From the sequence record NC_041877.1: a DNA stretch of 64,000 nt. One strand, written 5' to 3'. How positions within the stretch are numbered: the stretch's first letter is position 1; each line of letters begins with the position of its first letter. Positions 1,333 to 64,000 of the stretch are shown in pieces. This DNA is from Pseudomonas phage SM1. Below the pieces are notes generated by a model. It saw only the letters and a program-made list of their open reading frames with translations, did not search any database and had not been told where the DNA came from. A program made the position numbers and the translations under genes.

Positions 1333-1995
1333 ATGTACCTGCTTTCTAACGGGGAAATCGAAGCGCTCATCAAGGGAGTAACTACCCAGTCTGGACAGTG
1401 CTGTACCGAACCTTCCCCGTCAGTATTTGACTCTCTCCATCGCAACATCCGCACCCGTATCGAGGATTGCTTGGGGGTCCAGCACCTCTACCGCTACACC
1501 TGGGCGGATACTTTCGAGATCGGGTCGTGCGAGTCCAACAATCGGGTTCTCCTGCGTTTGTCCAACGCTTTCATCAATGAAGTGGACAGCGTTAAGGTTT
1601 TCAATTCCGATGGCAGTGCAAACGCTTGCACTACCGAAGTAGACCAGCGCATGGGCCTTGTTGAGCTTACCCTGCCGAAAGGCCGGTATCGCATCCAGTA
1701 CATTGCTGGGTTCGAGGCTGACGAAATTACCAAAGTGCTGAAGGGCACTCCCGATTGGATGCGGGCCGCCGCGCAGGCCGCGCTCCGCCTCTGGCTGCTA
1801 GCAAGCAGTAACTCCTCCATCCCGAAAGAAGTAGCGCTTGGGGAACTAACAGCCGCAGCGCGCCGGGAGCTGGCTATTCGCATTTACCAGCGCTACGACC
1901 GCCCGCGCGGTAACGTGGTTTGGCCCATTCGCGATTGCGTGGCCGTAGCACCTGCGGCGGCGCCTACGGAGAACGGGAGCCCTGTAGCATGGTAA
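1333..1995 (+). CDS. hypothetical head-tail connector/adaptor-region protein
   Basis: Good RBS gaggagagagtc-ATG. Sits between capsid and tail genes. Contains in-frame motif copy at 1616-1631 (S-A-N-A-C-T). Confidence 0.45.
   Translation: MYLLSNGEIEALIKGVTTQSGQCCTEPSPSVFDSLHRNIRTRIEDCLGVQHLYRYTWADTFEIGSCESNNRVLLRLSNAFINEVDSVKVFNSDGSANACTTEVDQRMGLVELTLPKGRYRIQYIAGFEADEITKVLKGTPDWMRAAAQAALRLWLLASSNSSIPKEVALGELTAAARRELAIRIYQRYDRPRGNVVWPIRDCVAVAPAAAPTENGSPVAW
1616..1631. repeat. motif copy GTGCAAACGCTTGCAC (inside CDS, frame S-A-N-A-C-T)
   Basis: 16-bp near-palindrome family TGCAA-RCGY-TTGCA. Confidence 0.8.
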
Positions 1996-2480
1996 TGAAC
2001 GAACGGTACGTAGGCGGAGCCAAGAAACTCCAACAACGTATCGCTACAATCCGAAGAAATCTTGCGCTCCCCGCCCTCACTTCCGAGATCGGGGATTTGC
2101 TTTATCGGCGGACCATGGATCGGTTTCGCCGTATGGTTGATCCCGACGAGAACCCCTGGAAAGACCTTGCCCCTGCTACCCTACGACGTAAGCAGGCGGA
2201 AGGCTACGGGGATGCCCAAAAGCTGGTTCGTAAAGGTTTCCTTCGCGACTCCATACAGAAGATCACGGGCGGTATCTCAGGAGCACTTTTCATCAATACC
2301 GGGGCCGGAGTACGGATAGGCATTACCGACCCCGGTGTAGCGGAGTACGCCGCAGTCCAAAATAGGGGAAGTCGTGACGGCAGGATACCGGCTCGCCGCT
2401 TCCTCGGCATAGGACGCTTGGACGTTAAGTCGGTGGATTCTTTCCTGCGCCGAAAGGCGAATAACCTGGGACTGGACTAA
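1989..2480 (+). CDS. putative virion morphogenesis / head-tail joining protein
   Basis: Start ATG overlaps the upstream stop (ATGGTAA). Resembles the phage virion-morphogenesis family (RRFLGIGRLD-type motif). Position fits the structural module. Confidence 0.45.
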   Translation: MVMNERYVGGAKKLQQRIATIRRNLALPALTSEIGDLLYRRTMDRFRRMVDPDENPWKDLAPATLRRKQAEGYGDAQKLVRKGFLRDSIQKITGGISGALFINTGAGVRIGITDPGVAEYAAVQNRGSRDGRIPARRFLGIGRLDVKSVDSFLRRKANNLGLD

Positions 2481-2998
2481 TGGCAGACACAATCATTACG
2501 GACTACGACGAGGTTTTAGACCTCCTCGAAAATGATCTGAAAACCAAGATCATTCGCGCGATGCAGCGGGCCAACATCCAGGCTTCGGTAGTCGGAGTCT
2601 TCAGCCTGGATGAGCTGGAGCAACGTACGGAAAGTGATATGGCGATGGGCAGCGTAGTTTTTGGCGTAGCCTACCAAGGCTGTAAGCCCGGCCCTGATAT
2701 GCCTGAGCGCACTAACCCAGCCCACACCAACGGGGCGGGGTTTGCGGATTTCCTGTTCAGCATCATCATTGGCGGCAAGGTAGATACTTGGTGTAGCCAA
2801 CGAGGCTTCGTAGCCCGTATCCTTACCCTGCTGCGAAAAGAGATTTACCAGAGCGACGTACAGACCGGAAAACGGCCCGAGGCCGTACGGGTCTGGAACT
2901 TCGTACAAGAAAGGCCGGAGATTGCAGACTCGTCTAGTGACATGCTGTACTATTCGCAGGTCTGGAAGCTCAACCTACCACTGAAGTCGTTGAAGTAA
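2480..2998 (+). CDS. hypothetical tail-completion-region protein
   Basis: Start overlaps the upstream stop (TAATG coupling). Lies in the head-tail joining module. Confidence 0.45.
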   Translation: MADTIITDYDEVLDLLENDLKTKIIRAMQRANIQASVVGVFSLDELEQRTESDMAMGSVVFGVAYQGCKPGPDMPERTNPAHTNGAGFADFLFSIIIGGKVDTWCSQRGFVARILTLLRKEIYQSDVQTGKRPEAVRVWNFVQERPEIADSSSDMLYYSQVWKLNLPLKSLK

Positions 2999-3013
2999 AC
3001 AAGGAGACCATTC

Positions 3014-3781
3014 ATGGCTACCAACCGTCCCGTGCCGAAGTCGGCATACTACTCTGGCCAGGGCCGCCTCATCATCGGTGAGCGCGATCCGGTTACCGGT
3101 AAACCCCTCAACCTCTACGAGGTGGGCAACTGCACCGCTCTGGAGATCACCATCGCCACCACCGAGACCGACCACAAGGAATCGATGACTGGCGAGCGGG
3201 CTATCGACTTCACCATCGTGAGCGAGAAGAACGCCACCTTCACCATCACCTGCGAGTCGCTGTCGCTGAAAAACCTGGCTCTCGGCTTCTGGGGTTCCAC
3301 CGCCACCAAGGCCGCCGGTACCGTAGCTGCCGAGCCGATCAAGATCGCCCCGGGTGCGTACGTCGCCCTGGCTAACCAGAACGTCTCGGCTGTCGTCATC
3401 ACCACCACTGGCGGCACTCCGGCGCCGGTACCGACTACTGCCTATTCGGTCGATCCGGAATTCGGGGTCATTCGTTTCAACGACACCGCTACTGCGGGCG
3501 ACGGCACTGTCGAGTACGAGTTCGGCGAAGTAAGCCGTCTCGAAGCTCTGACCCAGGTCGCGGCGCCGGAACGTTACCTGCGTTTCGAGGGTATCAATAC
3601 CCTGAACGAAGAACTGGTGCTGGTCGAGATTCCGCGCGCCCAGTTCTCGCCGCTGCAAAACCTCCCGCTGATCAACGAAGAAGTGGCATCCTTCGAGATC
3701 GCTGGTAAAATCTTGCAAGACCCGCTGGCTGGCGAAGGTGATGCGAAATACTATCGCCAGACTCTGATCACCGCCGCCTAA
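3014..3781 (+). CDS. putative major tail protein
   Basis: 255-aa ORF with RBS aaggagacc. It is the gene immediately upstream of the chaperone pair and tape measure. A strong terminator follows, as expected for a highly expressed structural gene. Confidence 0.5.
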   Translation: MATNRPVPKSAYYSGQGRLIIGERDPVTGKPLNLYEVGNCTALEITIATTETDHKESMTGERAIDFTIVSEKNATFTITCESLSLKNLALGFWGSTATKAAGTVAAEPIKIAPGAYVALANQNVSAVVITTTGGTPAPVPTTAYSVDPEFGVIRFNDTATAGDGTVEYEFGEVSRLEALTQVAAPERYLRFEGINTLNEELVLVEIPRAQFSPLQNLPLINEEVASFEIAGKILQDPLAGEGDAKYYRQTLITAA

Positions 3782-3799
3782 TCGGTAGCGGTTTTATCG

Positions 3800-3826
3800 A
3801 AGGGGCCTACTGGCCCCTTTTCTTTT
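3800..3826 (+). terminator. rho-independent terminator (AAGGGGCC-tact-GGCCCCTTTTCTTTT)
   Basis: GC hairpin followed by T-rich tract. Confidence 0.65.
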
Positions 3827-3838
3827 GAGGAGAAGAAA

Positions 3839-3854
3839 ATGCAAACGCTTGCAC
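3839..3854. repeat. motif copy ATGCAAACGCTTGCAC (includes start codon of 3839 gene; 12 nt after terminator)
   Basis: Same family. Confidence 0.8.
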
Positions 3855-4117: not shown

Positions 4118-4128
4118 GGATCGGAATA

Positions 4129-8000: not shown

Positions 8001-10290
8001 GGATCAATCTACCTCGGCTCAACAGGAGAACTTGAAAAACCTGCAAACGGCATACGACGAAGCCCAGTCCGGTTACGCTGCGGCTAACGGCCAACTGCAA
8101 GACCTGCGCACCCGGCTGGATGGCTTTATTGCTGATGCTCGTAAAAACAATCTCGGAGATGCGGTTCTTGGTTCACTGCAATACTTGCAAGTCGTACTGC
8201 AACAACCGGTAGCTTATATCCAAGACACGCTTAATCTGCTGCGGCAGGTAAGTGCCGAGGGTGCCAAGCTGACCGGTGCCGCTGCTGTTCCTACCAAGCC
8301 AACTTCAGGTACTGGTTCCTTTACGCCGACCTCCGATAGCGATGCGCGCCGTCTTAGTCGAGCCCGGGTAGAGCTGGCGAAAGCCGAACTGCAAGCGCTT
8401 GCAAACTTGGAGAAACAAGCCAACAAGGAGCGAGAAGAAGCGCTTGAGTTTTCGTATAGCCGGTCCTTGGTCTCGATTAAGGAATACTATGCACAGCGCA
8501 TGGCTATCACCCGCAGCAATCTCGATATCGAACTGAAACTGCGCCGCCAGGAGCTGGCTGCTATTCAGGACGAGATGAAGAATCTTGCGGCGGACTCCAG
8601 CACTGGCAAGAACCAAGCCGAACAGGTACGCATGCAGGCTCAGGTCGCGCAAGCGCAAGGGCAGATAGATGTTTTGCTGAAACAACGTGACGCGCTGGCG
8701 GCCACTACGGACCGGGAGCTTAGCAATGCCATGCGGGAGTTCACGGACTCTATCGTCGAGCAGCGCAACAGTCTCGTGGAGTTCTTCGGCGCGGCTACAG
8801 ATGGGGAAGGGTTCCAAGTTGCCCTTGAAGCGGCTCAGGTCAAATATCGCGACTTCATCGACAAGATGAAGGCGAACGCTGCCGACTTCCCGGAGCTGGT
8901 TCCGCTGATCGGATTCACCGAAATGATGGGTCGCTTTGAAGCCCTAGAATCCGCTCTGGGGCAAGTGCAACGCGAAGCCGACCTTACTGGTAAAGGATTC
9001 GACAATCTGCGAGATCGTATCGATCTGGCGGTGGGTGCCGGGGCTCTTACCCGCCTTGAGGGGGTGGCTGCGCTGGACGAGCTTCGTAAGAAGGAGATCG
9101 CCTATCAAAAATCTATCGTAGATCGGAGCCGCGCAGAGATCGCAGCAGCCGAGGCATCTGGGAAAGGACTCGACCGCAATAGTCTGCGCTACAAAGAGCT
9201 TCAGCAAACTATCGACGATGCACAATTGAAACTGGAGAAACTCCAGTTCCAGGGCAACGAGGTAGCTAAAGAGATCAACGAAGGTATTCGTGGAGCTTTT
9301 GAAGACCTCTTTAACTCCATCGCTTCCGCAGATACCGAGAACCTGCTAAGCGACTTCCTGCGGTCGGTCACCATGTCTATATCGGAGAAAGCATCCGAAG
9401 GTCTGTCCGATATGATCATGAATGCCCTGAGCTCCAGCGGAGATGGTGGAATCGGCGGGTTCTTCGCAAGTCTCTTCGGCGCTACGTCCGAGGCAGGACC
9501 AGACGGCTCCGCATTGAATCCACTCTATGTCCGTCTTACCGATGGTATCCCCGGGCTGGATGGCGCTGTAGCGGACCCTAACGCAACGCCTAGCAGTTGG
9601 CTCGACCGGATCATGGGTAGGGGCGCAGGGGACGAGGAAGCCCCAACGCCGAAGACAGACAAGGACCAGCAAGGGGTGTTCGGTACGCTAGAGTCTGCCT
9701 TTACCCCAGGCGGTTTGTTGGACTCTGGTCTTAGCTCGGTGGTCTCCGGGGTGCAGGGCGTAGCCCAGGCAGTTAGCGGAGGGTTCGGTAGTTTGCTTGG
9801 CGGGCTCGGGAGTTTGATCGGCCAGATCATCTCCGCTATCTACGCCTCTTCAGCTTCTTCCTCGGCGTCGAGCGGTTTGGGGGCAGCGGGCGGAGCCTTC
9901 GGTATGGCGCACACTGGAGGGATTATCGGACGTACTACCATGCGTCGTTCCTATGCTCCCGTTTCTGTATTTGCCAATGCGGTTCGGCACCACACTGGGG
10001 GTATTATCGGATCGCAACCTGGGCTACAGGCCAATGAGGTTCCGATCATAGGAGAGCGTGGTGAGGAGGTTTTGACCAAACAAGACCCGCGCCATCGTGA
10101 CAATCTTGGAAAAGGCGGAAGCGGAGCTGGCACTAGTGGTGATACCATGCAGCCGATTTTCAACGTGCAACCGGTGCTTAGCGAACAAACTGTGCTGGAG
10201 GCGCTGCAAGGGTCGCAAGGTCAGAAATTACTTCTGGTCCATATCGGCAAACAGCCCCAGAAGTTCCGTCAAGCCCTCGGCATTAACTAA
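5038..10290 (+). CDS. tail tape measure protein (about 1751 aa)
   Basis: Very long alpha-helical, A/Q/R/E-rich ORF with a Gly-rich C-terminal region, located after the chaperone pair. RBS ggagagccaaaag-ATG. Contains in-frame motif copy at 8389-8404. Confidence 0.85.
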   Translation: MANESELTVRINGQDNLTPQLSQLESRLIRFVGAVSSALSALKIASFPIQAIRGFEREMAGVQKTTNFTDAQIKQLGDSLVDLSRRINVSAEDLAKIAAAAGQQGLGREGVEGIRQFSESVSRMAAVLDLTAEDAGTNIGKIASIFKISLRDIESVVSAFNQASNNSTASGEQLLDVVKRIGDAAGSLKLEQSVGLAASAIDFGVSPEVAGTSLSKIFAEFYGRADKFSKLLGVSVNDWMQQLQKDGIGALKMYLDGLRKLSADQQQKVIKELSGGGRIGVLLTKFVQDANNSVLDNNLNNAVQGYRSGTSAIQEQRTVLKTLDAELAKAGNSFQALGIKAGEVFGPRLAAYIAQLNKALADPAVIHFAESVGNAFLDMFDSIATGIKFIADLNVNWENFVQIAKTLIAIRLGQWFLSALSSVPVLGAAMTRLGLDFARSSEQQRNASQVANTAFQTQITRIRELMAQRRAYIQAVEAETQAEIAASRAREAQTAAETRNLQAQMALRQRNDAVNAASGQVTAARGGIATAQAAVAQRAAQVQQQLNERLQRAEQQHQARLTAIVTQGDAARAEARAQGSRAGVRQANLAQAEAIAQEEAYQRRSLAGINAYYARRIQAVQQAGVQEVAAARLAFMQSLSQFDRVASGPGMMVLTNQARLAASALNQADQAANRANASLTAAQAATTRAAAGFSMLGSALRIVSAGFQALIAIAGRVFFWLSIIYLALDAFGVLENIGAGFQKLTDAMGLTSEASRREAQNQRDLIAAYNAANKARLDAIDGLKAYADASGRVRDDVVTRIRSNLTDSDNDVRSEAMKQLFELQRGVLASQEQATTDIQGLPEWRQKAEADIAAVKAELEKAKKDLEQSLAIADMPVLFDDTGMGAIANQQAVKIAQDRVAALTQSLEDAQKRLGMFTDESERGLNQFGQNAADNAEKVKKVLSELFTQDSAKAFETLADPFIAASKARDDFAKKMSDLNEQIVQATGDQSTSAQQENLKNLQTAYDEAQSGYAAANGQLQDLRTRLDGFIADARKNNLGDAVLGSLQYLQVVLQQPVAYIQDTLNLLRQVSAEGAKLTGAAAVPTKPTSGTGSFTPTSDSDARRLSRARVELAKAELQALANLEKQANKEREEALEFSYSRSLVSIKEYYAQRMAITRSNLDIELKLRRQELAAIQDEMKNLAADSSTGKNQAEQVRMQAQVAQAQGQIDVLLKQRDALAATTDRELSNAMREFTDSIVEQRNSLVEFFGAATDGEGFQVALEAAQVKYRDFIDKMKANAADFPELVPLIGFTEMMGRFEALESALGQVQREADLTGKGFDNLRDRIDLAVGAGALTRLEGVAALDELRKKEIAYQKSIVDRSRAEIAAAEASGKGLDRNSLRYKELQQTIDDAQLKLEKLQFQGNEVAKEINEGIRGAFEDLFNSIASADTENLLSDFLRSVTMSISEKASEGLSDMIMNALSSSGDGGIGGFFASLFGATSEAGPDGSALNPLYVRLTDGIPGLDGAVADPNATPSSWLDRIMGRGAGDEEAPTPKTDKDQQGVFGTLESAFTPGGLLDSGLSSVVSGVQGVAQAVSGGFGSLLGGLGSLIGQIISAIYASSASSSASSGLGAAGGAFGMAHTGGIIGRTTMRRSYAPVSVFANAVRHHTGGIIGSQPGLQANEVPIIGERGEEVLTKQDPRHRDNLGKGGSGAGTSGDTMQPIFNVQPVLSEQTVLEALQGSQGQKLLLVHIGKQPQKFRQALGIN
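8389..8404. repeat. motif copy CTGCAAGCGCTTGCAA (perfect 14-mer palindrome core; inside TMP, frame L-Q-A-L-A-N)
   Basis: Same family. Confidence 0.75.
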
Positions 10291-10300
10291 GGAGAGAGCA

Positions 10301-12243: not shown

Positions 12244-12246
12244 TGT

Positions 12247-13962
12247 GTGGCTAACTTTTCTGGAATTACCTTCAAGTCCCCCTGGCAAACCGCCGGGGGT
12301 CGCCGCAGTACGAACTTGCGAAAGATGAAAGTCAACCAAGAGACTGGGCTTGCTTGGCGGTTCAATTTGGCGGCACCTAGCTCCTACCAGCAGAACGCCC
12401 CGATAGACCTCATCCACAAGGAACGGGTAGGTGCGGACTACCCTCTACTCCTGCGGCTGATCTACAACAAGATCAACCTCAATAGCATCAACTTCGAACT
12501 CGGGAACGTGGTCGGTTCGCAACAGTTGGACCTGAAAATCTGGAATGCGTATTTCGTGCCTGTCACGCTTTTGAGCATTGAGTACGATGGCGATAGTGGG
12601 GTAACGATCAGCGGGCAACCGAACCCACCTTTGGTACTGAAAGCCCTGGAGCAGCGTATTTGGAAAATAGGCATTGATGCCAACGGTCCGCCTGTAATTG
12701 AGGGGAAGATCACTATCAAGTTCTCCGATGGCACCACCGTCGTCATCCAGATCAGCGGAAGTCGTATCACCATCTGGTCTTTCTCGGCGGATTGGTCGTC
12801 GAGCGTGGTAGAGCGTCTGGAGTGGCTGACCAGCATCACCAACAGCCCTCTTGGCGACGAACAGCGCCGCTCTCTACGCCTCTCCCCTCGCCGCTCTTTT
12901 GAGGTGCAAGCGCTTGCACGAGACCGCGAACGACAACTAATGGACATGGCGGTTTTCGACTGGGGTGGCCGGAATTGGGCACTACCTATCTACCCAGATG
13001 TTCAGGAGCTGGCAGTCGGCATTGGGGCCGCATCCCTAGAAATACCCTGTATTACCGCGAATCGGGATTTCCGGTCCGGCGGTTTGGTTATCCTTCGCGG
13101 AGCTACGGCCTTCGACTATGAGGTGGCAGTGATCGCTACAGTGGAACCCAACCGGGTAACTTTGCAGCGCCCTCTTCAAAGTGCATGGGCTCGTAAGAGC
13201 AAGGTGTTTCCTGCGAGGTCAGCGAGGTTCTCCGAACAACCTACCTTCACCCGGATAACGGACCGTGCATACTCGGTGAAAGCTAAGTTCCAACTGAGTG
13301 AAAACTCAGACTGGCCGGCGGTATCGCCATCGTTGATCTATCGCGGTAAGCCTGTATTTGAATTGCCGCCGGAGGAGTCGGAGGAACTCACAAGTACCTA
13401 CGTTCGTCTACTTCGCATGATTGACAATAGCACGGACCTGCCCGCGTACCGGGACACTGCCAATTTGGGATTCACGGCTACTGCCCACCGTTGGCTGATG
13501 CATGGGGCGGAAGAGCACTCGGCGATGCGCAGCTTCTACTACAGCCTTCGTGGCCGGTGGAAATCAGTATGGCTTCCTACCCACGCGGATGATGTAACGA
13601 TGTACCGTCAAGCGTTGACCCAGGACACTACCTTGGATGTGCTGCCCGGCGGTTACGCCCGTTTCGGTATCTCGCGCCCTGGGCGTCGCGATCTCTATAT
13701 TTTGCTTACGGACAACTCGGTAATTCTTCGCAGGGTGGAGTCGGCCACGGAGCTTACTGAAAATGGAGAAACGTTCGAGCGCCTGACTCTGGATGGGCAG
13801 ATTGGTCAAGATTTGCCGGTAACCAAAGTCAAGCGGATCAGCTTCATGGCCCTATGTCGGCTCGATCAAGATTTCATTGAAATCAACCACGAAACCGATA
13901 TCGAGGGTTTGGGTTCGTGCAAAACCACTTGGCGCAGTCTGCGGGATGATATGGAGGTGTAA
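12247..13962 (+). CDS. tail/baseplate protein (571 aa)
   Basis: GTG start 7 nt after RBS ggaggtga. Contains in-frame perfect-palindrome motif copy at 12904-12919 (V-Q-A-L-A-R). Confidence 0.5.
   Translation: MANFSGITFKSPWQTAGGRRSTNLRKMKVNQETGLAWRFNLAAPSSYQQNAPIDLIHKERVGADYPLLLRLIYNKINLNSINFELGNVVGSQQLDLKIWNAYFVPVTLLSIEYDGDSGVTISGQPNPPLVLKALEQRIWKIGIDANGPPVIEGKITIKFSDGTTVVIQISGSRITIWSFSADWSSSVVERLEWLTSITNSPLGDEQRRSLRLSPRRSFEVQALARDRERQLMDMAVFDWGGRNWALPIYPDVQELAVGIGAASLEIPCITANRDFRSGGLVILRGATAFDYEVAVIATVEPNRVTLQRPLQSAWARKSKVFPARSARFSEQPTFTRITDRAYSVKAKFQLSENSDWPAVSPSLIYRGKPVFELPPEESEELTSTYVRLLRMIDNSTDLPAYRDTANLGFTATAHRWLMHGAEEHSAMRSFYYSLRGRWKSVWLPTHADDVTMYRQALTQDTTLDVLPGGYARFGISRPGRRDLYILLTDNSVILRRVESATELTENGETFERLTLDGQIGQDLPVTKVKRISFMALCRLDQDFIEINHETDIEGLGSCKTTWRSLRDDMEV
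12904..12919. repeat. motif copy GTGCAAGCGCTTGCAC (perfect 16-bp palindrome; inside tail gene, frame V-Q-A-L-A-R)
   Basis: Same family. Confidence 0.8.
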
Positions 13963-13963
13963 T

Positions 13964-15029: not shown

Positions 15030-15045
15030 GTGCAAGCGTTTGCAC
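15030..15045. promoter_or_regulatory. motif copy GTGCAAGCGTTTGCAC, intergenic, immediately 5' of SD ggagggg of gene 15056
   Basis: Same family. Preceded by TAAATAAGT. Confidence 0.8.
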
Positions 15046-17510: not shown

Positions 17511-17511
17511 T

Positions 17512-20484: not shown

Positions 20485-20500
20485 GTGCAAGCGTTTGCAC
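20485..20500. promoter_or_regulatory. motif copy GTGCAAGCGTTTGCAC, starting 1 nt after the tail-fibre stop codon
   Basis: Same family. Followed by an 8-bp inverted repeat and a terminator. Confidence 0.8.
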
Positions 20501-22036: not shown

Positions 22037-22052
22037 GTGCAAACGCTTGCAA
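22037..22052. promoter_or_regulatory. motif copy GTGCAAACGCTTGCAA, between stop of 21548 gene and SD of endolysin
   Basis: Same family. Confidence 0.8.
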
Positions 22053-23650: not shown

Positions 23651-23666
23651 GTGCAAGCGTTTGCAC
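23651..23666. promoter_or_regulatory. motif copy GTGCAAGCGTTTGCAC at predicted +1 of promoter 23615-23643; followed by conserved extension TTGCACTAGGTCT
   Basis: Same family. The extension is shared with copy 59454. Confidence 0.8.
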
Positions 23667-28965: not shown

Positions 28966-30305
28966 TGAAAGTCACGGCGCACGAAGCCCGCAGATATGCG
29001 GAGGTAGTGGCCGATCTCACTAGGCGGGATGATCTTTACTTTAGCGAATACGTAGAAGTCACTTCTGTACTGGCGAGATTCTGGCCTGAGTTCCTAACGA
29101 TGGCCGAGCTGGCAACCCTCACTTTCATTCTTGGGCGAACGCTCATGTTTCGAAAGAAAGCGGAGTCCATCAGCAAGGCTCATTTTCTGAATGGAGTGAT
29201 TGCGGCAGACGGTACACGGGTTTGTAGCGGCGTAGGAGTGTCACATAACACACTCCGTACAGCTCTCGAAGGGCTGGTAGATAAGGGAATAGTTGATATT
29301 CACGCGTTTTTGGACGGTAAAACCGAGACGATATCGCGTGTTTACGAGGTAAAAACAGCCAAAATAGTGGCTGATAGAGATACCGAAGGGGTTCGAAGTA
29401 TGCTCATCAGGTCCCGGAAAACCATGGAAAAACAGCCAGATAGAGACGGTTTTGAGGAGTCTGGGAGGGGGTCCAAAATTTGGCACACCCCCCTCCAAAA
29501 TTTGGCACACAATAAAGAGATACTACGTATCTCTAAAACATCTTCTAAAGAAGATGTATCCGGATCGGGGGAAAAAGTTGTAGAGCGGGCTTTCAAGCTA
29601 CCTATGGCCAAGAGGGTTAGGCGTGCAAGCGTTTGCACAGAGCCCACTACTATGTCTGCCCGTGAACGGGCAGAGCAGATACTTGGTGCCGCCAAGGCGA
29701 AGCGCAATGATCGGGCGGTGAACACCAAGGTACCTACGAAGAAATGGGAGACCCGAACCCTACAGGCCCTATTGGATAAAGCGCGGGAGTCTGTAGGCAC
29801 CTCGTGCCCTCGCATCACGGTAGTCTCTAAGGGTATCGGGGTACTCCATCGGCGTATGTTGGAAAGCGAGGTAGAAGACGTAGTTGATTTCTTCTCTTGG
29901 GCTCTAACGAACTGGACGTTGGTTGCCAGTGCAAACCGAAAAGCCAAAGCGACCCAGTTGCGTAATAAGGCTACCAAGGCTGCGCAATCGGAAATGCACA
30001 TGGCACCTAACTTCAGTGATCTGGCGTATCGGTTCCCCTACTTCTTCCGGTTCTACCAAGACCGCTGCTATACCGAGAAGCAACTAGCTAGCGAACTGAA
30101 AGCGAAGCAAGAAAAAATACAAACAGCCAAGCGCAAGGAATCCGAAGCCAGCATAGCCCGTCGTAATGAGGTGCGCCGCAGGGACGAGGAAGCGGAACGT
30201 CAGCGTCGCAGGGAAGAAGAGGCATTCCGTAAGCGCAGGGCAGTAATGGCGCAGGATTCTGATGATGATCTGCCAGAGTACGAAGCTCCGGCATGGGGAG
30301 GTTAA
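28966..30305 (+). CDS. putative replication initiator (lambda O-like) with origin embedded in the linker region
   Basis: GTG start after RBS ggggag. N-terminal winged-helix-like domain and a charged C-terminal domain. The coding sequence contains two 17-bp iterons plus AT-rich inverted repeats (29466-29556) and a motif copy (29623-29638). A split into two genes cannot be excluded (internal ATG at 29651). Confidence 0.45.
29466..29556. repeat. putative origin of replication: 2x iteron TCCAAAATTTGGCACAC flanked by G5/C5, then AT-rich segment with two palindromes (AGAGATAC/GTATCTCT, CATCTTC-taaa-GAAGATG)
   Basis: Direct repeats at 29472-29488 and 29494-29510. Inverted repeats at 29516-29534 and 29539-29556. 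They lie inside the initiator gene, as in lambda ori. Confidence 0.55.
29623..29638. repeat. motif copy GTGCAAGCGTTTGCAC inside initiator ORF, about 70 nt downstream of the origin repeats and 13 nt upstream of an internal ATG
   Basis: Same family. Confidence 0.8.
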
Positions 30306-38395: not shown

Positions 38396-40132
38396 ATGCG
38401 CCCGGCTATCCTAGCGGGCGCCATGAAAATCCCCGTCGCTCGGATTAACGCAAAACTTGTCGAAAAGCATACTACCTACCTCTATAGACCAATGGGGGCG
38501 GAGGATGATATCGAAGTTAAAGCGTTTTTCTACGACGGGGATTTTATATGTGTGCCCAGGCAGTATGGTCTTGCGCTATGCAATAAACTAGGCATTGAGT
38601 GGGAGGACCACACCTCATCCGGGGTACCTGTTTCTTTCCCTAAAGTACCGGTACCTCGCGAATACCAAATCCAGACCTTGGACGATATAGTTCAAGCCTG
38701 TGACAACTACTACGATTTTCTTTTCCGAGCGCACACGGGATGGGGCAAGACCATCGGCGCGCTTATCGTGGCCGCCCGTTTGGGTGTATCTACCCTCATT
38801 ATTGTCGATCAAGATAACTTGGCGGACCAATGGGTAGAGCGGCTCACTGACCCTAGCCTCTTCGGTCTTAACCCAGAGGATATAGGGCGAATTCAGGGAA
38901 AAAAGTGTGACTACGAAGGCAAGCCCGTAACTATTGCGATGGTGCAAACGCTTGCACAAAAAAAATTCGATGAGGAGGTCTACCGCTACCACGGTTTGGT
39001 AATATCGGATGAGGTCCATACTATTGGAGCCCCGACCTTTAGTCAGGTTCTGACTCAGTTCGCGGCTACATGGAGGATTGGGATATCCGCTACTCCGAAA
39101 CGCCGGGACGGTTTGCAGAAGGCTCTAGATCATAACCTGGGCAAGGTAAGGGTGGCCGCTGACAAAGAACACAAAGAGTCTGCGGTATACATGATCTACC
39201 ATGACACCGTTTATTCGTGGTATGGGAATGTGTCGCCGAAGGTTGGACGGATATTGACGGAAATCGCAGACGATGGTTTTCGAAATCTCAAGTTGGCTGA
39301 CGCCGTAGTATGGTTGTACGAGACCGGTAGGGATGTGCTTGTCCTGGGCGACCGAATAGAGCAACTCAAGGAACTCGGTTGTTTGCTGAAATACATGGGC
39401 GTGGAAGAAGATCGCATAGGACTTTATACTGGGGAAGACCCGGTATTCCGTCTTACCAAGGACCCACGTCCTGCGCGCCGCCCGAAAGGTTATGTGCGAG
39501 ATACGGAGTACACTCCTCTGAAATACGAGCGAGTCCGTAAGAAAGTGCCAAAGGCCCGCCTGAAGCAAGTCTTGCGGGAGTCTAAAATTATCCTGGCTAC
39601 GTATGGGATGTTTCAAAAAGGTGTGGATGAACCGAGGTTGGCTGGGGGCGCTGACGCCACGCCGCGAGGAACCTCTGAGCAGCAAATGGGTCGTATCCAG
39701 CGGGAGGTCGCCGGGAAGCATATGCCCATTTGGGTAACTATCGTGGACAGGCAGAACTACCGACTTCTGAACTCGTTCCTAGGGAGGGCTCAGGAGTATG
39801 TCAAAAACAACTCTCGCCTCTTCGAATGGGGCGAAGACGGGGGACTTACTGAATGCGAACCAAAGCGCCTATTCGCCGAGATACGAAACCGAATAAACGA
39901 ACTGAAAGCAATGAGGATCGAAACGAACTCAGACGGTATAAATATGCTAACGACAGCACCCTGCGCGAAGACCAAAGGGCAAAAGCACGAGACCGATATA
40001 CGCGAGTGGGCCAAGCGCCTCTCCCGTCAGCGGTCCGAGGGCGAGGCACGCGAAGGGAAATCACCTTCGAAGGTGCGCCGAGGCCCACCACCATCGAAAC
40101 CTTCAGCATCGCCGAGGCTGCGCAGGCGTTAG
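38396..40132 (+). CDS. SF2 DEAD/DEAH-box DNA helicase (UvsW/RecG-like)
   Basis: Motif I AHTGWGKT, motif II VISDEVH and motif VI QQMGRIQR. In-frame motif copy at 38942-38957 (V-Q-T-L-A-Q). The C-terminal about 90 aa are low complexity and overlapped by a better-looking ORF. Confidence 0.75.
   Translation: MRPAILAGAMKIPVARINAKLVEKHTTYLYRPMGAEDDIEVKAFFYDGDFICVPRQYGLALCNKLGIEWEDHTSSGVPVSFPKVPVPREYQIQTLDDIVQACDNYYDFLFRAHTGWGKTIGALIVAARLGVSTLIIVDQDNLADQWVERLTDPSLFGLNPEDIGRIQGKKCDYEGKPVTIAMVQTLAQKKFDEEVYRYHGLVISDEVHTIGAPTFSQVLTQFAATWRIGISATPKRRDGLQKALDHNLGKVRVAADKEHKESAVYMIYHDTVYSWYGNVSPKVGRILTEIADDGFRNLKLADAVVWLYETGRDVLVLGDRIEQLKELGCLLKYMGVEEDRIGLYTGEDPVFRLTKDPRPARRPKGYVRDTEYTPLKYERVRKKVPKARLKQVLRESKIILATYGMFQKGVDEPRLAGGADATPRGTSEQQMGRIQREVAGKHMPIWVTIVDRQNYRLLNSFLGRAQEYVKNNSRLFEWGEDGGLTECEPKRLFAEIRNRINELKAMRIETNSDGINMLTTAPCAKTKGQKHETDIREWAKRLSRQRSEGEAREGKSPSKVRRGPPPSKPSASPRLRRR
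38942..38957. repeat. motif copy GTGCAAACGCTTGCAC inside helicase CDS (V-Q-T-L-A-Q)
   Basis: Same family. Confidence 0.8.
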
Positions 40133-43504: not shown

Positions 43505-44119
43505 ATGCGGATACGACGTACTAAGTCTGATGGTCAGTTGTTCGTTCTGGGCGTAGACCCGTCATTGGGGTCTACCGGCTACTGTTATGAGCTTGACGGT
43601 CGCCCGGTAGTGGGTAGGCTCTGTACTAAGTTTCGTGGAATGCAGAGGCTGGAACACCAGTTAAACCAGTTTCGTGGGCTGTTGGATACGGTGATGGAGG
43701 AGGCGACCGATTACCGGATAGTTTGCGTATACGAAGGGTATGCAATCGGCGCCAAGGGGGTTGGTCGTTGGGAATCCGCAGAGTTGGGCGGGCAATTCAA
43801 GCTGGAACTTTACAAACGCGGGATTCCGGTTATCCTAGTGCCTCCTACTACCCTAAAGCTGGTATTCACTGGCAAGGGGAACAGCAAGAAGCCTGCGATG
43901 AAAGCTGCCGCTATTGAGCACTTCGGTGTAGATAGCAGTTTGAATAACGATGAAGTAGACGCGTATGCTTTGTATCGATTGGGCCATGCGTTACTTCACG
44001 GGATCGGACCGGCGGAGTTTTTGCAACGTGCGTTACGGGCGAAAAGTAAGGTAACATTGCACCCAGGCAAGGGAGCCTTCGAGATGCAAGCGCTTGCACA
44101 TTTGGCTTCTGTAGGTTGA
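43505..44119 (+). CDS. RuvC-like Holliday junction resolvase
   Basis: LGVDPSLGSTGY (Asp1), YEGYAIG, and a DEVDAYAL C-terminal acidic motif. In-frame motif copy at the 3' end (M-Q-A-L-A-H). Confidence 0.7.
   Translation: MRIRRTKSDGQLFVLGVDPSLGSTGYCYELDGRPVVGRLCTKFRGMQRLEHQLNQFRGLLDTVMEEATDYRIVCVYEGYAIGAKGVGRWESAELGGQFKLELYKRGIPVILVPPTTLKLVFTGKGNSKKPAMKAAAIEHFGVDSSLNNDEVDAYALYRLGHALLHGIGPAEFLQRALRAKSKVTLHPGKGAFEMQALAHLASVG
44084..44099. repeat. motif copy ATGCAAGCGCTTGCAC at 3' end of RuvC gene (M-Q-A-L-A-H)
   Basis: Same family, perfect 14-mer core. Confidence 0.8.
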
Positions 44120-45607: not shown

Positions 45608-45624
45608 CTTTGAGGAGAGAAAAC

Positions 45625-46335
45625 ATGGCTCTACAACGTAGCCGGCGCTCGGCGTCTTCGTCCAAAACCAACGCGAAGCCCCGACGTGCGGCTGAGCCCG
45701 TACGGATCAAAATCGACTATATCCCTATCGAGGAGATTGTCCCCTACGAGTTCAACGCCCGTAACAATGAGCAGGCCATCGAAGCGGTCAAAAAGTCTAT
45801 TCAGCAATTTGGCTTTCTGAACCCGATTGTCCTCGACGAGAACAACGTGCTGGTCGCGGGCCATACGCGAACGGAAGCGGCCAAGCAACTAGGCTATATC
45901 GAGCTTCCGTTCGTAAGCGCAGCCCACCTTACTCCGGAGCAAGTACAGGCCTTCCGCCTCGTAGACAACAAAGTAGCTGAGATTGCTACATGGGATGACG
46001 CACTCTTGGCGCAGGAAATGTATGCGATCAAGGAGATGTTTGATTTCACTGATTTCGGTTGGGACGCGGCAGAGATCGATTGCCTGGGCCAGCTTGTTTC
46101 TGACGATTGCCTACTCACTGCTGGTCTAGCTACGCCGGAGGAGGATGAAGAAGGTAGCGCCCGCCTTCCTGTGCGGCGTTCCCCGGCAACTGCGCGTATT
46201 GTGATCGGAGAGTTCGTCTTTTTCCGTCCGGCATCCTCAGTTCGCAATTTCCTCGACGGTCTGCGGCGTGCCCACAACGCCGACAGTGCGGCGATGGAAG
46301 AGGATATCGCTAACCGGCTTGGGCTACTGGATTAA
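45625..46335 (+). CDS. ParB-like nuclease-domain protein (ParB/Srx fold)
   Basis: IEEIVPYEFNARNN...IVLDENNVLVAGHTRTEAAKQLG is a ParB N-terminal domain signature. RBS gaggaga. Confidence 0.65.
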   Translation: MALQRSRRSASSSKTNAKPRRAAEPVRIKIDYIPIEEIVPYEFNARNNEQAIEAVKKSIQQFGFLNPIVLDENNVLVAGHTRTEAAKQLGYIELPFVSAAHLTPEQVQAFRLVDNKVAEIATWDDALLAQEMYAIKEMFDFTDFGWDAAEIDCLGQLVSDDCLLTAGLATPEEDEEGSARLPVRRSPATARIVIGEFVFFRPASSVRNFLDGLRRAHNADSAAMEEDIANRLGLLD

Positions 46336-46345: not shown

Positions 46346-47902
46346 ATGGCACTTCGTCAGCGCCGCACCAGGGTGAGTGCAGCCGATAAACTTACCTCGA
46401 TTACTGTCGTCAATGTACCTACGGAGAACCACTCGCCCGACATCAAGAACCCGCGAAAGGCGGACCCTGCGCGTCTGGGCCTGCTTCGGTTGTCTATCGT
46501 CAAATTAGGGTTCCTGATGCCGATATTCGCGCGAGAACAGGACGGAACTTTGTTGTCTGGGCACCAGCGACAAAGGGTATGCCTGGAGGCGGGAATCCCC
46601 ACCATGCCGACCGTGTACGTATCGCTCACGGAGCAGGAGATGATGGGTATCAACATACTCTTCAACCGCGTCACCAACGACTTCAGTGCTTTCGACACAG
46701 GCAGCACCGGAGTGGCCCGGATCAACATGAAACAAACACTGGAAGCGCTGGAGTCTTTGCCCGACTGTGACTTCAGTAACTTCTATGCAAACGCTTGCAA
46801 AAACGAACCGATCAAAGTATTCGCGGCGGGTTGCGTAGACCAGTACGATAAAAAGGCCATTGTCACCGCCGGGGCGTTCGTTCGAATGGGGGTCAAAATC
46901 CCACTCGTAGTCAGTGAGTCTGGGGAGGTAGTAAATGGGGTCCACCGCCTATTCGCCGCTATTGAGAAGGGTTTGGATCAGTGGCCTGTAGTCCGTATCC
47001 CGGATCGCATCGCCGAGGTCGCTAAGATTGTTCTCAACTACCTGAGCATGGACTTCCACATCGACGAGGACTTCAAGGACCTTCTCCGTGGTGGTGCCTT
47101 CCGGCGAGTTTCAAATAACCGAGGTTTGGTGCCGAAGAGTTTTCGTTTCTGGGCCAATGGCGAACGATCTCTACTTGACAGGGATAGCTACAGCACGGAG
47201 TTTTGGCTACGTTTCCGTGAGATACATGGTAACTCCATTCTCGATTTCGGAGCTGGGCTTTGCCGTGTAGCCCCCTACCTGCGGACCAAGGGATTCGAGG
47301 CAATGGATTTCGAGCCCTATCGCGTCGATCCCGTACTTAACGAAGCAGAGCCTAGCCCCGACTATAGCCGGTCCATGGCGAAGCAATTCCTGTCCGCTAT
47401 CGCTGATCCTAGGCACAAATTCGATTCTATTTTTATGTCGGCAGTGATGAATTCGATTCCTTTCCCGGAGGATCGATTGAAGGTATTGGTTATTGTGCAT
47501 GCACTCTGTCGGCTGGATACTTCGGTTTACGGAACGTGCCGAGATATTTCCGATTTCTCCTACGAGTATGGCGGGGTAAGGAACGGTAACTACTTCGTGA
47601 TGGACGGAGAGCCGGGCATACGGTTGGGTGACATCAACTCTAGGCCTAAAATTCAGAAATTCATGACGCAGGACGAAGCTCGTAGCTACTTTGACCGCTT
47701 CTGGAACAAAGTCGAATTTTGGGAGGGTGGCAACGTTTTCTTCTTCCGTTTGTCTGCTCCCAAAGCACCGAATCTGAAAGCTCTGGGCCAGAGTTTGGAT
47801 TTCGAATTTGGCGATCTGCCTTTTCTTGACGGCTCGCGTATGGGTTTAGCTAAAGAGGCTCGTGCGGCTTTCGCAAAGCGATTGGGGCGGGCGATTCCCT
47901 AG
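46346..47902 (+). CDS. fusion: two ParB-like domains plus C-terminal class-I SAM-dependent transferase domain resembling CmoB (carboxymethyltransferase family)
   Basis: ParB motifs LLSGHQRQRV and VVNGVHRLFAA. MTase motif I ILDFGAGL..DFEPYRVDP and the post-II segment FDSIFMSAVMNSIPFPEDRLKVL are close to CmoB ([23 protein letters not shown]). Contains in-frame motif copy at 46785-46800. Confidence 0.6.
   Translation: MALRQRRTRVSAADKLTSITVVNVPTENHSPDIKNPRKADPARLGLLRLSIVKLGFLMPIFAREQDGTLLSGHQRQRVCLEAGIPTMPTVYVSLTEQEMMGINILFNRVTNDFSAFDTGSTGVARINMKQTLEALESLPDCDFSNFYANACKNEPIKVFAAGCVDQYDKKAIVTAGAFVRMGVKIPLVVSESGEVVNGVHRLFAAIEKGLDQWPVVRIPDRIAEVAKIVLNYLSMDFHIDEDFKDLLRGGAFRRVSNNRGLVPKSFRFWANGERSLLDRDSYSTEFWLRFREIHGNSILDFGAGLCRVAPYLRTKGFEAMDFEPYRVDPVLNEAEPSPDYSRSMAKQFLSAIADPRHKFDSIFMSAVMNSIPFPEDRLKVLVIVHALCRLDTSVYGTCRDISDFSYEYGGVRNGNYFVMDGEPGIRLGDINSRPKIQKFMTQDEARSYFDRFWNKVEFWEGGNVFFFRLSAPKAPNLKALGQSLDFEFGDLPFLDGSRMGLAKEARAAFAKRLGRAIP
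46785..46800. repeat. motif copy ATGCAAACGCTTGCAA inside ParB-MTase CDS (Y-A-N-A-C-K)
   Basis: Same family. Confidence 0.8.
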
Positions 47903-47936: not shown

Positions 47937-47952
47937 GTGCAAGCGTTTGCAT
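47937..47952. promoter_or_regulatory. motif copy GTGCAAGCGTTTGCAT fused to -10-like TATAGT (47933-47938), 16 nt upstream of the cmoA-like start
   Basis: Same family. Confidence 0.8.
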
Positions 47953-51473: not shown

Positions 51474-51488
51474 TGCAAGCGTTTGCAC
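51473..51488. promoter_or_regulatory. motif copy ATGCAAGCGTTTGCAC overlapping terminase stop TAA, immediately 5' of SD of dcd
   Basis: Same family. Preceded by TTTTAAT. Confidence 0.8.
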
Positions 51489-53907: not shown

Positions 53908-53923
53908 ATGCAAGCGTTTGCAC
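53908..53923. promoter_or_regulatory. motif copy ATGCAAGCGTTTGCAC, 35 nt upstream of tRNA-Arg
   Basis: Same family. Confidence 0.8.
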
Positions 53924-53958: not shown

Positions 53959-54030
53959 GGGGTGGTAGCTCAGGGGTAGAGCGAGCGTTTTCTAAACGCT
54001 TGGGCGTGGGTTCGAATCCCACTCACTCCA
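53959..54030 (+). tRNA. tRNA-Arg (anticodon UCU)
   Basis: Hand-folded cloverleaf. Acceptor GGGGTGG/TCACTCC (two G-U pairs), D-arm GCTC-AGGGGTA-GAGC, anticodon stem AGCGT/ACGCT with loop TTTCTAA, T-arm GTGGG-TTCGAAT-CCCAC, discriminator A. Confidence 0.75.
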
Positions 54031-54093
54031 TCTAGAAGTTTAGATGCCACGGAAGGCGTCTACCTAGAATTGCTGTAATCCCTTCAAAGGGGA

Positions 54094-54133
54094 AACGTGG
54101 CGGACGGGGGTTCGATTCCCCCCAGCTCCACCA
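54094..54133 (+). other. tRNA-like 3' fragment (T-arm GGGGG-TTCGATT-CCCCC, acceptor 3' strand CAGCTCC, A, CCA) without a matching 5' half
   Basis: Canonical T-loop and encoded CCA. No complementary 5' acceptor (GGAGCTG) within 200 nt upstream. Confidence 0.35.
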
Positions 54134-54457
54134 AAGACATTCTCGGCCAGCACGTTCGTTCCTAGGTGTGAGAAGGTGGCTGCGATACTGCCGGGTGGTT
54201 GCTAGGAACATCATTCGGAAAGTCCAGCTAGAGAGTGTCTCTGATGGGGCTGTTCAGGATTCGACGCCGCGCGTACTTAGCGAAGGCAGCAAGGAAAGGC
54301 GACGCACCTTGACGCGCGCAAATCGATAAACGCCAACGATACTTCGTTCGACGTTCGCCTCGCAGCCTAAACCCCTGCGGAGTGACGGGTAGCCTCCGGG
54401 CTTCCTCCCCCTGCTACGGCTAGTACCCGTAGTTGCCTTGGAACAGAAAGGGGAGGG

Positions 54458-54533
54458 CCTTCGCGTAGGCGCACTGACGGTCGGCACTCCACCGCACGCC
54501 TGTCAGGGGGCTGTCAGTGCGCCTACGCGAAGG
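54458..54533. repeat. perfect 21-bp inverted repeat CCTTCGCGTAGGCGCACTGAC / GTCAGTGCGCCTACGCGAAGG with 34-nt spacer
   Basis: Arms at 54458-54478 and 54513-54533. Lies in an ORF-free region. Confidence 0.7.
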
Positions 54534-59454: not shown

Positions 59455-59469
59455 TGCAAACGCTTGCAC
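59454..59469. promoter_or_regulatory. motif copy GTGCAAACGCTTGCAC overlapping stop of 59029 gene; followed by TTGCACTAGGTCT extension
   Basis: Same family. Confidence 0.8.
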
Positions 59470-63149: not shown

Positions 63150-63451
63150 TGTACATAAAACTATCCCCGTACGTAGTGATCCCTGGCGACAGCACGGATA
63201 TGGAGGTTTCCGTATCTGGCGATTTGATCGCCATCAACGGTACCGACTTCGACTTTTCGCCGTTGCCGGAGGGTGCAGAGCTGCCAGCCGTAGCTACAGG
63301 CTCGGACTACTTTGAGGGCTCTATTACCCGCGTTGATGGGGAAATCCGCTTGACCTTGAAGTTGCCTATCTCCTCGGACGCAAGCGAAGAGGCGCGATTC
63401 CCGGCGCCGATTCACGTAACGTGGAGCGGTCCAGTGGAGTTGCCGAAATGA
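63140..63451 (+). CDS. hypothetical protein (possible tail fibre assembly/chaperone)
   Basis: Small ORF overlapping the fibre gene's 3' end. Confidence 0.35.
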   Translation: MVLMYIKLSPYVVIPGDSTDMEVSVSGDLIAINGTDFDFSPLPEGAELPAVATGSDYFEGSITRVDGEIRLTLKLPISSDASEEARFPAPIHVTWSGPVELPK

Positions 63452-63663
63452 CTATCGATTGGGGTCATTTGAAAACTCCCGAGGAACTGTTGGAGGAGAA
63501 GCGACAGCTTGTCAGGCAGCAGCGGAGAGAAGCCTACGGCATAGAATCACTCCCGCTGTATATGGAGGCCCAGTACGAAGCGGCCAAGACGGGACAACCT
63601 GCTGACCTAACCGAATGGGTAGCTAAGGTTGACGAAATCGTAGCGCGCTATCCGATGCCGTAG
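63421..63663 (+). CDS. hypothetical protein
   Basis: 80-aa ORF overlapping the upstream gene. Confidence 0.35.
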   Translation: MERSSGVAEMTIDWGHLKTPEELLEEKRQLVRQQRREAYGIESLPLYMEAQYEAAKTGQPADLTEWVAKVDEIVARYPMP

Positions 63664-63984
63664 AGGTAGAAAGGAAATCCTGTGTGGGCATGGACGCTCC
63701 CCTACTAAATCCTGTGTGGGCATACGCCTTCCCCTACTGTCCAGATTCTGTGTGGGCATACGGGCTCCCCTACTACACCCCAGTGCAGTTTTGTGCTTAT
63801 TCGCCGGCGTCAGTGTTCGATTACTGGCAGCTCCCGCTGGCCGCTGGGTGGTCTCCTTCTGGTTACTGGTGTTGAGCTGGTGAACTCTTCTTGTGCTACC
63901 CCACTGACTGTCAGATTTAGCTTTCTGGTAGTAGGCCTCTGGTATTCGCTCGCTGTAGCAGCACACAATCCCATATCGCGTATA

Positions 63985-64000
63985 ATGCAAGCGTTTGCAC
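63985..64000. promoter_or_regulatory. motif copy ATGCAAGCGTTTGCAC fused to TATAAT (63981-63986) at window end
   Basis: Same family. Confidence 0.8.

Follow-up and report, generated by a model that had tools for sequence, protein, structure and literature searches.

The stretch of DNA analysed here, called the window below, comprises 64,000 nt of Pseudomonas phage SM1 (sequence record NC_041877.1; one strand, 5' to 3'), and the element in question is a short palindrome, TGCAARCGYTTGCA, whose copies (the sites) lie within and between its tail, helicase, methyltransferase and terminase genes. The window is >99% identical to the P. aeruginosa siphoviruses PaMx31, PA_L9, UF_RH6, FBPa45 and the BHU isolates (~94 kb, genus Samunavirus). 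PA_L9 is a near-identical complete genome of 94,141 bp; relative to its record, the window starts roughly 26 kb in and stops 3-4 kb short of the end. Essentially all genes are carried by the plus strand, i.e., the genome is one-directional, and the records of the PaMx31/PA_L9 group are circular or circularly permuted. According to GenBank, the capsid has its relatives in siphoviruses of 80-110 kb from Vibrio, Rhizobium, Stenotrophomonas, Rhodobacter and Agrobacterium.

Sequence and copy number of the palindrome

Exactly 18 exact matches to TGCAA-RCG-Y-TTGCA were found in the window, where 0.01 would be expected from shuffled sequences (maximum 1), and the full 94-kb genome of PA_L9 contains 28 copies. 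The original prediction, made from the sequence of the window, had described 18 copies that were unexpected by chance and were spread over the whole genome. Their number and places were confirmed, and they are indeed spread through the window, which is however only a part of the genome. The 14-mers in Table 1 start 1 nt after the 16-mers reported in that prediction. The window consensus is gTGCAARCGYTTGCAc, with the dyad reaching the flanking g...c in most copies, and the 16-mer of the window phage is GTGCAAGCGTTTGCAC. The arms are invariant, and a recount of the centres agreed with the earlier one: 8 GCGT, 6 ACGC, 4 GCGC and no ACGT. Not a single copy with one mismatch was found in the window, and only one relative with two mismatches, at 11459. 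Among inverted repeats of the 5-4-5 form, only those with TGCAA arms are over-represented in the window (18 copies); the next arms reach 2.

Half-sites that stand alone, apart from the full palindromes, are as frequent as expected or rarer, and since they are not enriched the unit is the whole dyad. Back-to-back Chi-like half-sites were ruled out for the same reason. The asymmetric centres occur in both orientations, about 2:1, alike within genes and at junctions. When the copies are classed by the R base of each half-site, the window has 4 G/G, 14 G/A and 0 A/A combinations (chi-square P = 0.007), and PA_L9 has 7, 20 and 1, respectively (P = 0.008).

A longer extension common to two copies had also been noticed earlier, and it holds. 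The window has only two occurrences of the 8-mer CTAGGTCT (23666-23673 and 59469-59476), each directly 3' of a site copy, a pairing with an estimated chance of ~0.002. There is no further similarity beyond the 8-mer, and both copies are located ahead of longer untranslated gaps before a gene.

Table 1. Site copies (14-mers), candidate reader genes and RNA genes in the window; gene context of the copies was mapped through the PA_L9 annotation. SD, Shine-Dalgarno sequence.
Feature	Position	Strand	Context
Site TGCAAACGCTTGCA	1617..1630		Within gene 1333-1995
Site TGCAAACGCTTGCA	3840..3853		On ATG of gene 3839-4117; terminator-like hairpin 20 nt before
Site TGCAAGCGCTTGCA	8390..8403		Within tape-measure gene, read as L-Q-A-L-A
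Site TGCAAGCGCTTGCA	12905..12918		Within tail gene 12247-13962, read as V-Q-A-L-A
Site TGCAAGCGTTTGCA	15031..15044		Junction; stop codon 1 nt before, next start 11 nt on
Site TGCAAGCGTTTGCA	20486..20499		Junction; 1 nt past stop of gene 17512-20484
Site TGCAAACGCTTGCA	22038..22051		Junction; 1 nt past stop, SD of next gene directly 3'
Site TGCAAGCGTTTGCA	23652..23665		Junction; 9 nt past promoter-like TTGCCT-17-TATAAT; followed by CTAGGTCT
Site TGCAAGCGTTTGCA	29624..29637		Within gene 28932-30305
Site TGCAAGCGCTTGCA	35733..35746		Within small gene 35585-35776
Site TGCAAACGCTTGCA	38943..38956		Within superfamily 2 (SF2) helicase gene 38396-40132
Site TGCAAGCGCTTGCA	44085..44098		Close to 3' end of RuvC-like gene 43478-44119
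Site TGCAAACGCTTGCA	46786..46799		Within ParB_N-methyltransferase gene 46268-47902
Site TGCAAGCGTTTGCA	47938..47951		Junction ahead of methyltransferase gene 47969-48706
Site TGCAAGCGTTTGCA	51474..51487		Junction; abuts stop of large terminase gene 49542-51473; position also occupied in L285
Site TGCAAGCGTTTGCA	53909..53922		Intergenic; tRNA-Arg 37 nt downstream; centre is ACGT in PA_L9
Site TGCAAACGCTTGCA	59455..59468		Junction; abuts stop codon; followed by CTAGGTCT
Site TGCAAGCGTTTGCA	63986..63999		Intergenic; window edge
Candidate reader, MerR-superfamily winged helix, 169 aa	39853..40362	+	Pfam MerR_1; phrog_19880 'transcriptional regulator'
Weaker candidate reader, ParB_N protein	45610..46335	+	phrog_620; paralogous ParB_N-methyltransferase fusion 46268-47902 adjoins
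tRNA-Arg(TCT)	53959..54030	+	Gene-poor stretch
Permuted tmRNA	54041..54461	+	Gene-poor stretch

Placement and spacing of the copies

Ten of the 18 window copies lie at gene junctions (one on a start codon and nine intergenic), in accordance with the approximately ten counted before, and the remaining eight are inside genes. In PA_L9 and in Stenotrophomonas phage DLP5, 13 of 28 and 22 of 31 copies, respectively, are in genes (46-71% of sites in coding sequence). Despite this coding placement, junctions are enriched (P = 1e-9 and 3e-5). For example, the non-coding 8.5% of the PA_L9 genome holds 15 of its 28 copies (P = 1e-9), while the 13 in-gene copies are spread over all genome modules. At junctions the 16-mer typically begins 0-1 nt from the preceding stop codon and ends 10-30 nt ahead of the next start. 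The in-gene copies of the window are mostly in the frame xTG CAA RCG CTT GCA, i.e., they encode Q-A/T-L-A.

Sites recur about once per 3-4 kb in each of three distant genomes, i.e., PA_L9, DLP5 and Vibrio phage SIO-2, and related siphoviruses of 80-110 kb, with DLP3 and many IMG/VR contigs among them, carry theirs at a similar density. The coefficient of variation of the spacing is 0.45 in the window (minimum 1152 bp, maximum 6109 bp, P 0.0004), 0.54 in PA_L9 (minimum 995 bp, maximum 6458 bp, P 0.0004), 0.48 in DLP5 and 0.52 in SIO-2, compared with about 0.97 for random placement; P did not exceed 0.0004 in the window, PA_L9 or DLP5. This spacing is far more regular than random, which argues that the position along the DNA is selected. 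Selection appears to act on this position and not on promoter proximity.

The site family in related phages

The identical 16-mer is present in multiple copies in many viral contigs of IMG/VR, which range from 38 to 71% GC and have no DNA similarity to the window. These contigs have distant capsid, protease, portal and replication proteins in common with it. In a family survey, ~240 loci were fetched around homologues of the capsid, recombinase and terminase genes, and most of them carry sites of the form T-G-N-A-N-N-(Y-R)-N-N-T-N-C-A, with centres that are lineage-specific. The arm changes among these loci are symmetric (TGCAA/TTGCA, TGAAA/TTTCA, TGAAC/GTTCA, TGCAC/GTGCA, TGCAG/CTGCA and TGTTA/TAACA). 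Together with the lack of enrichment of half-sites, this supports the earlier view of the site as a true dyad found in both orientations, one that is recognised as a unit and most simply by a DNA-binding protein that is dimeric.

DLP5 has 31 copies of TGCAA-TCAA/TTGA-TTGCA, and its variant of the 16-mer is TTGCAATCAATTGCAA. In SIO-2 (loci L198 and L199) there are 20 copies of TGMAMN-YR-NKTKCA, compared with 0.15 expected. Two different arms are paired in one site in locus L335, as in SIO-2, and the pairings include a TGCAAT arm with a TGAAAT, TGCACT or TGCAG arm. Loci that seemed to be poor in sites carry imperfectly symmetric ones, and SIO-2 therefore could not serve as a negative control. 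In the literature searched for the motif strings, for the phages of the group and for generic terms, the motif is nowhere described, and the site family is large and apparently undescribed.

Other repeated palindromes were seen in the distant relatives L342 with L225, L333/L334, L244 and L264. These replacement palindromes are CATAGTAGTACTACTATG (TAGTA-N-TACTA, 8 copies), TGGTA-TAGT-TACCA (4-5 copies), CGACC-CCGG-GGTCG and CGCGG-ACCT-CCGCG.

Conservation at orthologous positions

Purifying selection acts on the DNA sequence of the sites. DLP5 and phage DLP3 have 82% nucleotide identity, and each of the 15 sites in the first 50 kb of DLP5 has its counterpart at the same place in DLP3. In the arms, 150 of 150 positions are identical, compared with 745 of 900 (83%) in the 30-nt flanks (Fisher 9e-12). 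Changes within the sites are confined to the centre, where CA, TG, CG and TA are interconverted, so that a pyrimidine-purine step is always kept there. A constraint of this kind reflects the deformability of duplex DNA.

In more distant relatives (TerL 48-73% identical), the orthologous positions carry the variant of each lineage. For example, at the junction before the methyltransferase gene the window has a GCGT centre and L285 and L286 have TCAA (TGCAATCAATTGCA). At the 3' end of the RuvC-like gene, GCGC of the window corresponds to TCAA in L287, ACAT in L313 and TGAAA-TCAA in L319. At an in-gene position of the ParB_N-methyltransferase gene, L287 has TTGA, L290 has TCGA and L313 has ACGT, and the site of the window is elsewhere in the gene. 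All sites of a genome change together, as predicted if the reader is encoded by the phage and co-evolves with them. The conservation at orthologous positions that the original prediction had expected was therefore found, both in DLP5/DLP3 and in L285, L286, L287, L290, L313 and L319.

In the DLP5-type ParB genes, a site copy is located ~130-220 bp before the gene end, at the same place in five divergent phages (L321, L331, L353, which is DLP5, L358 and L361). What is conserved there may be the in-gene site or, alternatively, a peptide.

Relation to expression signals

It had been suggested that the motif could be a phage-specific promoter, and this was not borne out. When the flanks of 60 junction and 140 in-gene copies of the family were aligned on the motif, they contained ~0 bits at every position and no conserved -35, -10 or SD partner, and just two of the nine sigma-70-like matches on the plus strand of the window adjoin a copy. 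A fixed -10 or -35 partner is ruled out by these information-free flanks, and a sigma-54 promoter is ruled out by inspection of the sequence, which lacks GG at the -24 position. Junction copies are variously located before SD sequences, after terminators and before terminators, with no consistent relation. Intrinsic terminator features were not found at the sites, which have no T-run on the plus strand and only weak hairpins. REP/MITE-type (repetitive extragenic palindromic or miniature inverted-repeat transposable) elements were also rejected, the sites being 14-16 bp, exact, and in many cases in frame inside conserved genes at orthologous positions. As for the operator regulon of a dimeric regulator proposed for the motif, the dyad unit stood, but the tie to gene starts did not, given the in-gene copies, the regular spacing and the lack of a conserved flank.

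Sigma-70-like matches are depleted in positions 1-20000 of the window, the region of the tail genes (2, compared with 9.1 +/- 3.1 in shuffles), which is consistent with long read-through transcription units.

Candidate DNA-binding proteins

Three genes had been named as possible readers of the sites. The product at 28080 has no detectable DNA-binding family, and that at 48703 resembles a small terminase subunit. The third, the MerR-like gene at 40011, does encode a genuine MerR-type winged helix (Table 1), and its part as reader stays that of a candidate. The protein scores 22.4 bits against MerR_1 (cut-off 21.6), and the profile of its family matches CarA-N (2e-12), CarH, CadR, RacA (3e-5) and CueR in PDB. 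It has a conserved basic N-terminal arm. The open reading frame (ORF) shares 280 nt with the 3' end of the helicase gene, read in a different frame; the long form is supported by two database homologues of 169 aa (P0001 and P0002), and the annotation of PA_L9 contains the last 63 codons only. The gene is a core gene common to DLP5 and SIO-2, between the helicase and recombinase genes, and retrieval of MerR-like loci by peptide pattern gave 2 loci. The protein is the only conserved one with a clear sequence-specific fold and is the best, if a weak, candidate for the reader.

The ParB_N protein is a weaker candidate. Its AlphaFold2 (AF2) model has a predicted local distance difference test (pLDDT) score of 84, and the best folds are Noc, ParB and KorB over ~140-160 columns. 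As the reader, the ParB protein is disfavoured by several observations: the region after ParB_N is acidic and contains no basic helix-turn-helix (HTH), sites are not enriched in or near ParB genes (12 loci vs 10.9 expected), and SIO-2 has its 20 sites and no gp114-type ParB. Moreover, the presence of ParB is only weakly associated with site density. Neither the MerR-like recognition helix nor the ParB_N protein showed clean covariation with the arm type, and the proteins recurring among the contigs with the exact 16-mer, which are short fragments, were those of capsid, protease and replication genes only and did not single out a reader.

The ParB_N gene belongs to a conserved block upstream of the large terminase gene (45610-49545), which consists of ParB_N, the fusion of ParB_N with a class I methyltransferase (phrog_5475), a 'tRNA methyltransferase'-like member (phrog_4752) and a TerS-like protein that matches HTH_7 weakly.

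Other features of the window

The phage encodes a tRNA-Arg and a permuted transfer-messenger RNA (tmRNA) of the two-piece type (Rfam RF04321, 118.6 bits; beta_tmRNA, 111 bits), whose tag peptide according to ARAGORN is ANDTSFDVRLAA*. Both are located downstream of the strongest sigma-70-like match of the window (53273-53300, 11/12).

Product names are apparently shifted or wrong in several deposits (GenBank OQ383211.1, i.e., L115 and L116, and the BHU records): for the major capsid gene, UF_RH6 gives 'HNH homing endonuclease' and the Pa BHU records give 'methyltransferase type 11'. The UF_RH6 product labels are unreliable.

Possible role of the sites

Because the position along the DNA appears to be selected, and not the proximity to promoters, we infer that the sites have a genome-wide role in architecture or marking. 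They may be docking places of a putative phage DNA-binding protein with such a role, an explanation that we favour tentatively and to which we would give slightly less than an even chance. The site would be read by a protein rather than by an enzyme or a nucleic acid, the reader would be encoded by the phage, and the array as a whole would have an architectural function. Each copy would be a recognition site in duplex DNA, bound by a phage-encoded dimer or pseudo-dimer, in which two arms of 6-7 bp (g-TGCAA-R / Y-TTGCA-c) flank a central pyrimidine-purine step. If the DNA is kinked, this step (CG here; CA, TG, CG or TA in the relatives) is where the kink is likely to be. Over the full length of its one-directional genome the phage would maintain ~1 site per 3-4 kb, placing sites in short gene junctions where possible and elsewhere writing them into codons, usually as xTG CAA NNN NTT GCA (Q-x-L/I/F-A). 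The resulting nucleoprotein scaffold could organise, compact, anchor or identify the replicating phage DNA, analogous to RacA on ram, Noc on NBS, MatP on matS or KorB on OB, and effects on transcription could be secondary.

A bolder form of this proposal, which we consider doubtful, is that the genomes of this clade of siphoviruses (80-110 kb) bear a lineage-specific 'barcode', one cognate palindrome per 3-4 kb and even within genes, from which a co-evolving phage protein organises, anchors or identifies the phage's own replicating DNA. Such a barcode would be a viral counterpart of the RacA, Noc, MatP or KorB systems. Diverging pairs of site and reader could then discriminate self from co-infecting relatives or host DNA.

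Several observations weigh against a docking array of this kind. Slight asymmetry of the site is favoured in many lineages, and a plain homodimer does not predict asymmetry: the centre in DLP5 is almost always CA/TG and not CG or TA, and nearly every copy in SIO-2 has TGCAAT on one side and TGAAAT or TGCACT on the other. The identity of the reader is that of a candidate only. The MerR-type recognition helix varies widely among phages with identical arms, and locus L091, with the identical motif, has no MerR-like gene in the syntenic slot. The AF2 model of the MerR-type protein, based on 2 usable homologues, has a pLDDT of 50, too poor for use, and was left out of the fold search. When the presence and absence of candidate genes around the recombinase and TerL genes were compared, no gene separated site-rich from site-poor loci. 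Finally, regular spacing also fits loading sites of a processive enzyme, distributed sites of packaging initiation, or roadblocks.

Regular spacing irrespective of operon structure, the location of half or more of the sites within genes, their occurrence in both orientations (unlike stoperators) and the lack of a fixed relation to promoter elements make it unlikely that the array serves global transcriptional control, with a phage repressor on all copies blocking initiation or elongation for the silencing of a prophage or phagemid or as a temporal switch, much like the L5 stoperators, the phiC31 conserved inverted repeats or KorB silencing on RK2. Such control would suit a genome with all genes on one strand, the enrichment at junctions, the many junction copies between a stop codon and the next SD, and the one copy 9 nt past a good sigma-70 match, about at the transcription start. 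Moreover, DLP5 and DLP3 form lysogens or phagemids (PMC5834331, PMC7326821), and the MerR-type protein is the only conserved regulator-like protein. However, the site density is equal in the PaMx31 group, which is described as lytic, and the candidate gene is located within the replication/recombination module, not in an immunity cassette, of which none was identified. It is distinctly improbable that the sites are targets or loading places of an enzyme, whether for nicking or cleavage (T5-like interruptions or packaging initiation) or for loading a processive DNA-modifying enzyme such as the ParB_N-methyltransferase. All-or-none conservation without graded copies is typical of enzyme sites, regular spacing would give one loading or cutting site per segment, and the circular or circularly permuted records of the group also agree with it. 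Two ParB_N proteins, one of them fused to a methyltransferase, and another methyltransferase are encoded upstream of TerS and TerL, and in its model ParB_N is similar to the clamps Noc, ParB and KorB. The observations that disfavour ParB as the reader (its acidic middle region without a basic HTH, the absence of site enrichment at ParB genes, and the sites of SIO-2) and its weak association with site density nevertheless count against this explanation as well, and the sequence data give no sign of nicks or modification, though sequence alone cannot show nicks.

Mimicry of LacI/GalR-type operators, by which the phage would recruit or titrate a regulator of the host, is very unlikely. The family consensus T-G-N-A-A/C-N-CG-N-T/G-T-N-C-A does have the form of a LacI-family operator, and one phage variant, TGAAACCGGTTTCA (L187), is the operator of Pseudomonas PtxS (PMC3402500, PMC5902321). 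A host regulator would also agree with the absence of any LacI-type HTH signature in the plus-strand ORFs of PA_L9 and of PF00356 among the 20 proteins scanned. However, the same 16-mer is found in phages of 38-71% GC, and close relatives differ in their variant, so that the sites track the phage lineage and not the host; moreover, a decoy requires copy number and not regular spacing or costly placement in genes. Hardly to be expected, finally, is a hairpin in RNA or single-stranded DNA, acting as a translational operator (as had been suggested), an element of RNA processing or stability, or a signal for lagging-strand priming. A stem of 5-6 bp with a 4-nt loop is possible, many junction copies are located just ahead of an SD, and a palindrome identical on both strands would suit priming on either template. 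Against this, the hairpin is weak, with a stability near that of shuffled controls (z-scores -0.4 to -2.2), the stem is only 5 bp in DLP5-type sites, and no Rfam match was found at the sites. Moreover, roughly every second copy (8 of 18 in the window) is in coding sequence, where blocks to processing or translation would be harmful. Asymmetric variants occur in both orientations and thus leave no strand-specific G-U pattern, and the centres are held to pyrimidine-purine steps, a property of the duplex, and not to stable tetraloops.

If docking of a phage protein is the correct explanation, these phages select the position of docking sites along the whole chromosome, and do so strongly enough to constrain codons of structural and replication genes. 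Gene annotation would then be blind to a whole layer in the biology of phage chromosomes, which could concern their organisation, anchoring or self-marking, or the distributed loading of an activity. The system is easily tested, since the 16-mer is defined, the candidate proteins are few and specificity varies naturally in many ways. The family-wide signature of the sites could be used for spotting the clade in metagenomes. Since recoding may destroy sites, caution is necessary in engineering therapeutic phages of the PaMx31/PA_L9 group.

Comparison with known systems

RacA of Bacillus subtilis, a winged-helix protein of the MerR superfamily, binds the dispersed 14-bp palindrome TGACGCCGGCGTCA (ram) and has a non-transcriptional, architectural role (PMC4914108). 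Both ram and the phage site are perfect 14-bp TG...CA palindromes with a central CG and many copies dispersed on one replicon, and the phage encodes a MerR-type protein whose family profile matches RacA (E 3e-5) and whose binding to the motif is putative. However, ram clusters around the origin region whereas the phage sites are evenly spaced, and the phage protein has a conserved basic N-terminal arm in place of the long disordered linker and the DivIVA-binding coiled coil of RacA.

The sites OB of KorB (plasmid RK2), parS of ParB and NBS of Noc are near-perfect palindromes of 13-16 bp dispersed over a replicon, intragenic positions included, and their proteins are replicon-encoded dimers acting at a distance. 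The phage sites are likewise multicopy, near-identical palindromes, and the model of the phage ParB_N protein resembles this group. On the other hand, the protein lacks a basic HTH, the sites are not associated with ParB genes, and SIO-2 is without a gp114-type ParB. MatP-matS and SlmA-SBS of E. coli are a further case of palindromes (12-13 bp, tens of copies, mostly in genes) that mark a domain for an organising protein. Their sites are, however, confined to or excluded from one macrodomain, the proteins have other folds, and the systems are cellular and not viral.

The stoperators of L5 and other cluster A phages and the conserved inverted repeats of phiC31 comprise dozens of near-identical short sites across the genome that are bound by one phage protein. 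Stoperators are asymmetric (13 bp in the L5 type) and have a single orientation to transcription, and both they and the phiC31 repeats are essentially intergenic and serve prophage immunity. The phage sites resemble them in being genome-wide; they are enriched at junctions, with 46-71% of them nevertheless in coding sequence. They differ in being dyads in both orientations, evenly spaced and also present in phages described as lytic. The likeness to LacI/GalR operators is in the TGNAANCGNTTNCA form, i.e., TG-N-AA-N-CG-N-TT-N-CA with a central CpG or kinkable step; the differences are that the search of the phage for a LacI-type HTH gave none, that the sites lie elsewhere than at promoters and that their variants follow the phage lineage and not the host. 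Chi-like signals are short, asymmetric and work alone in one orientation, unlike the half-sites of the phage, which are not enriched. The dispersal of cognate sites over a replicon is therefore precedented, and what is new, as far as we can tell, is the clade-wide conservation of such sites, their regular spacing, their heavy placement in genes and their co-evolving variants.

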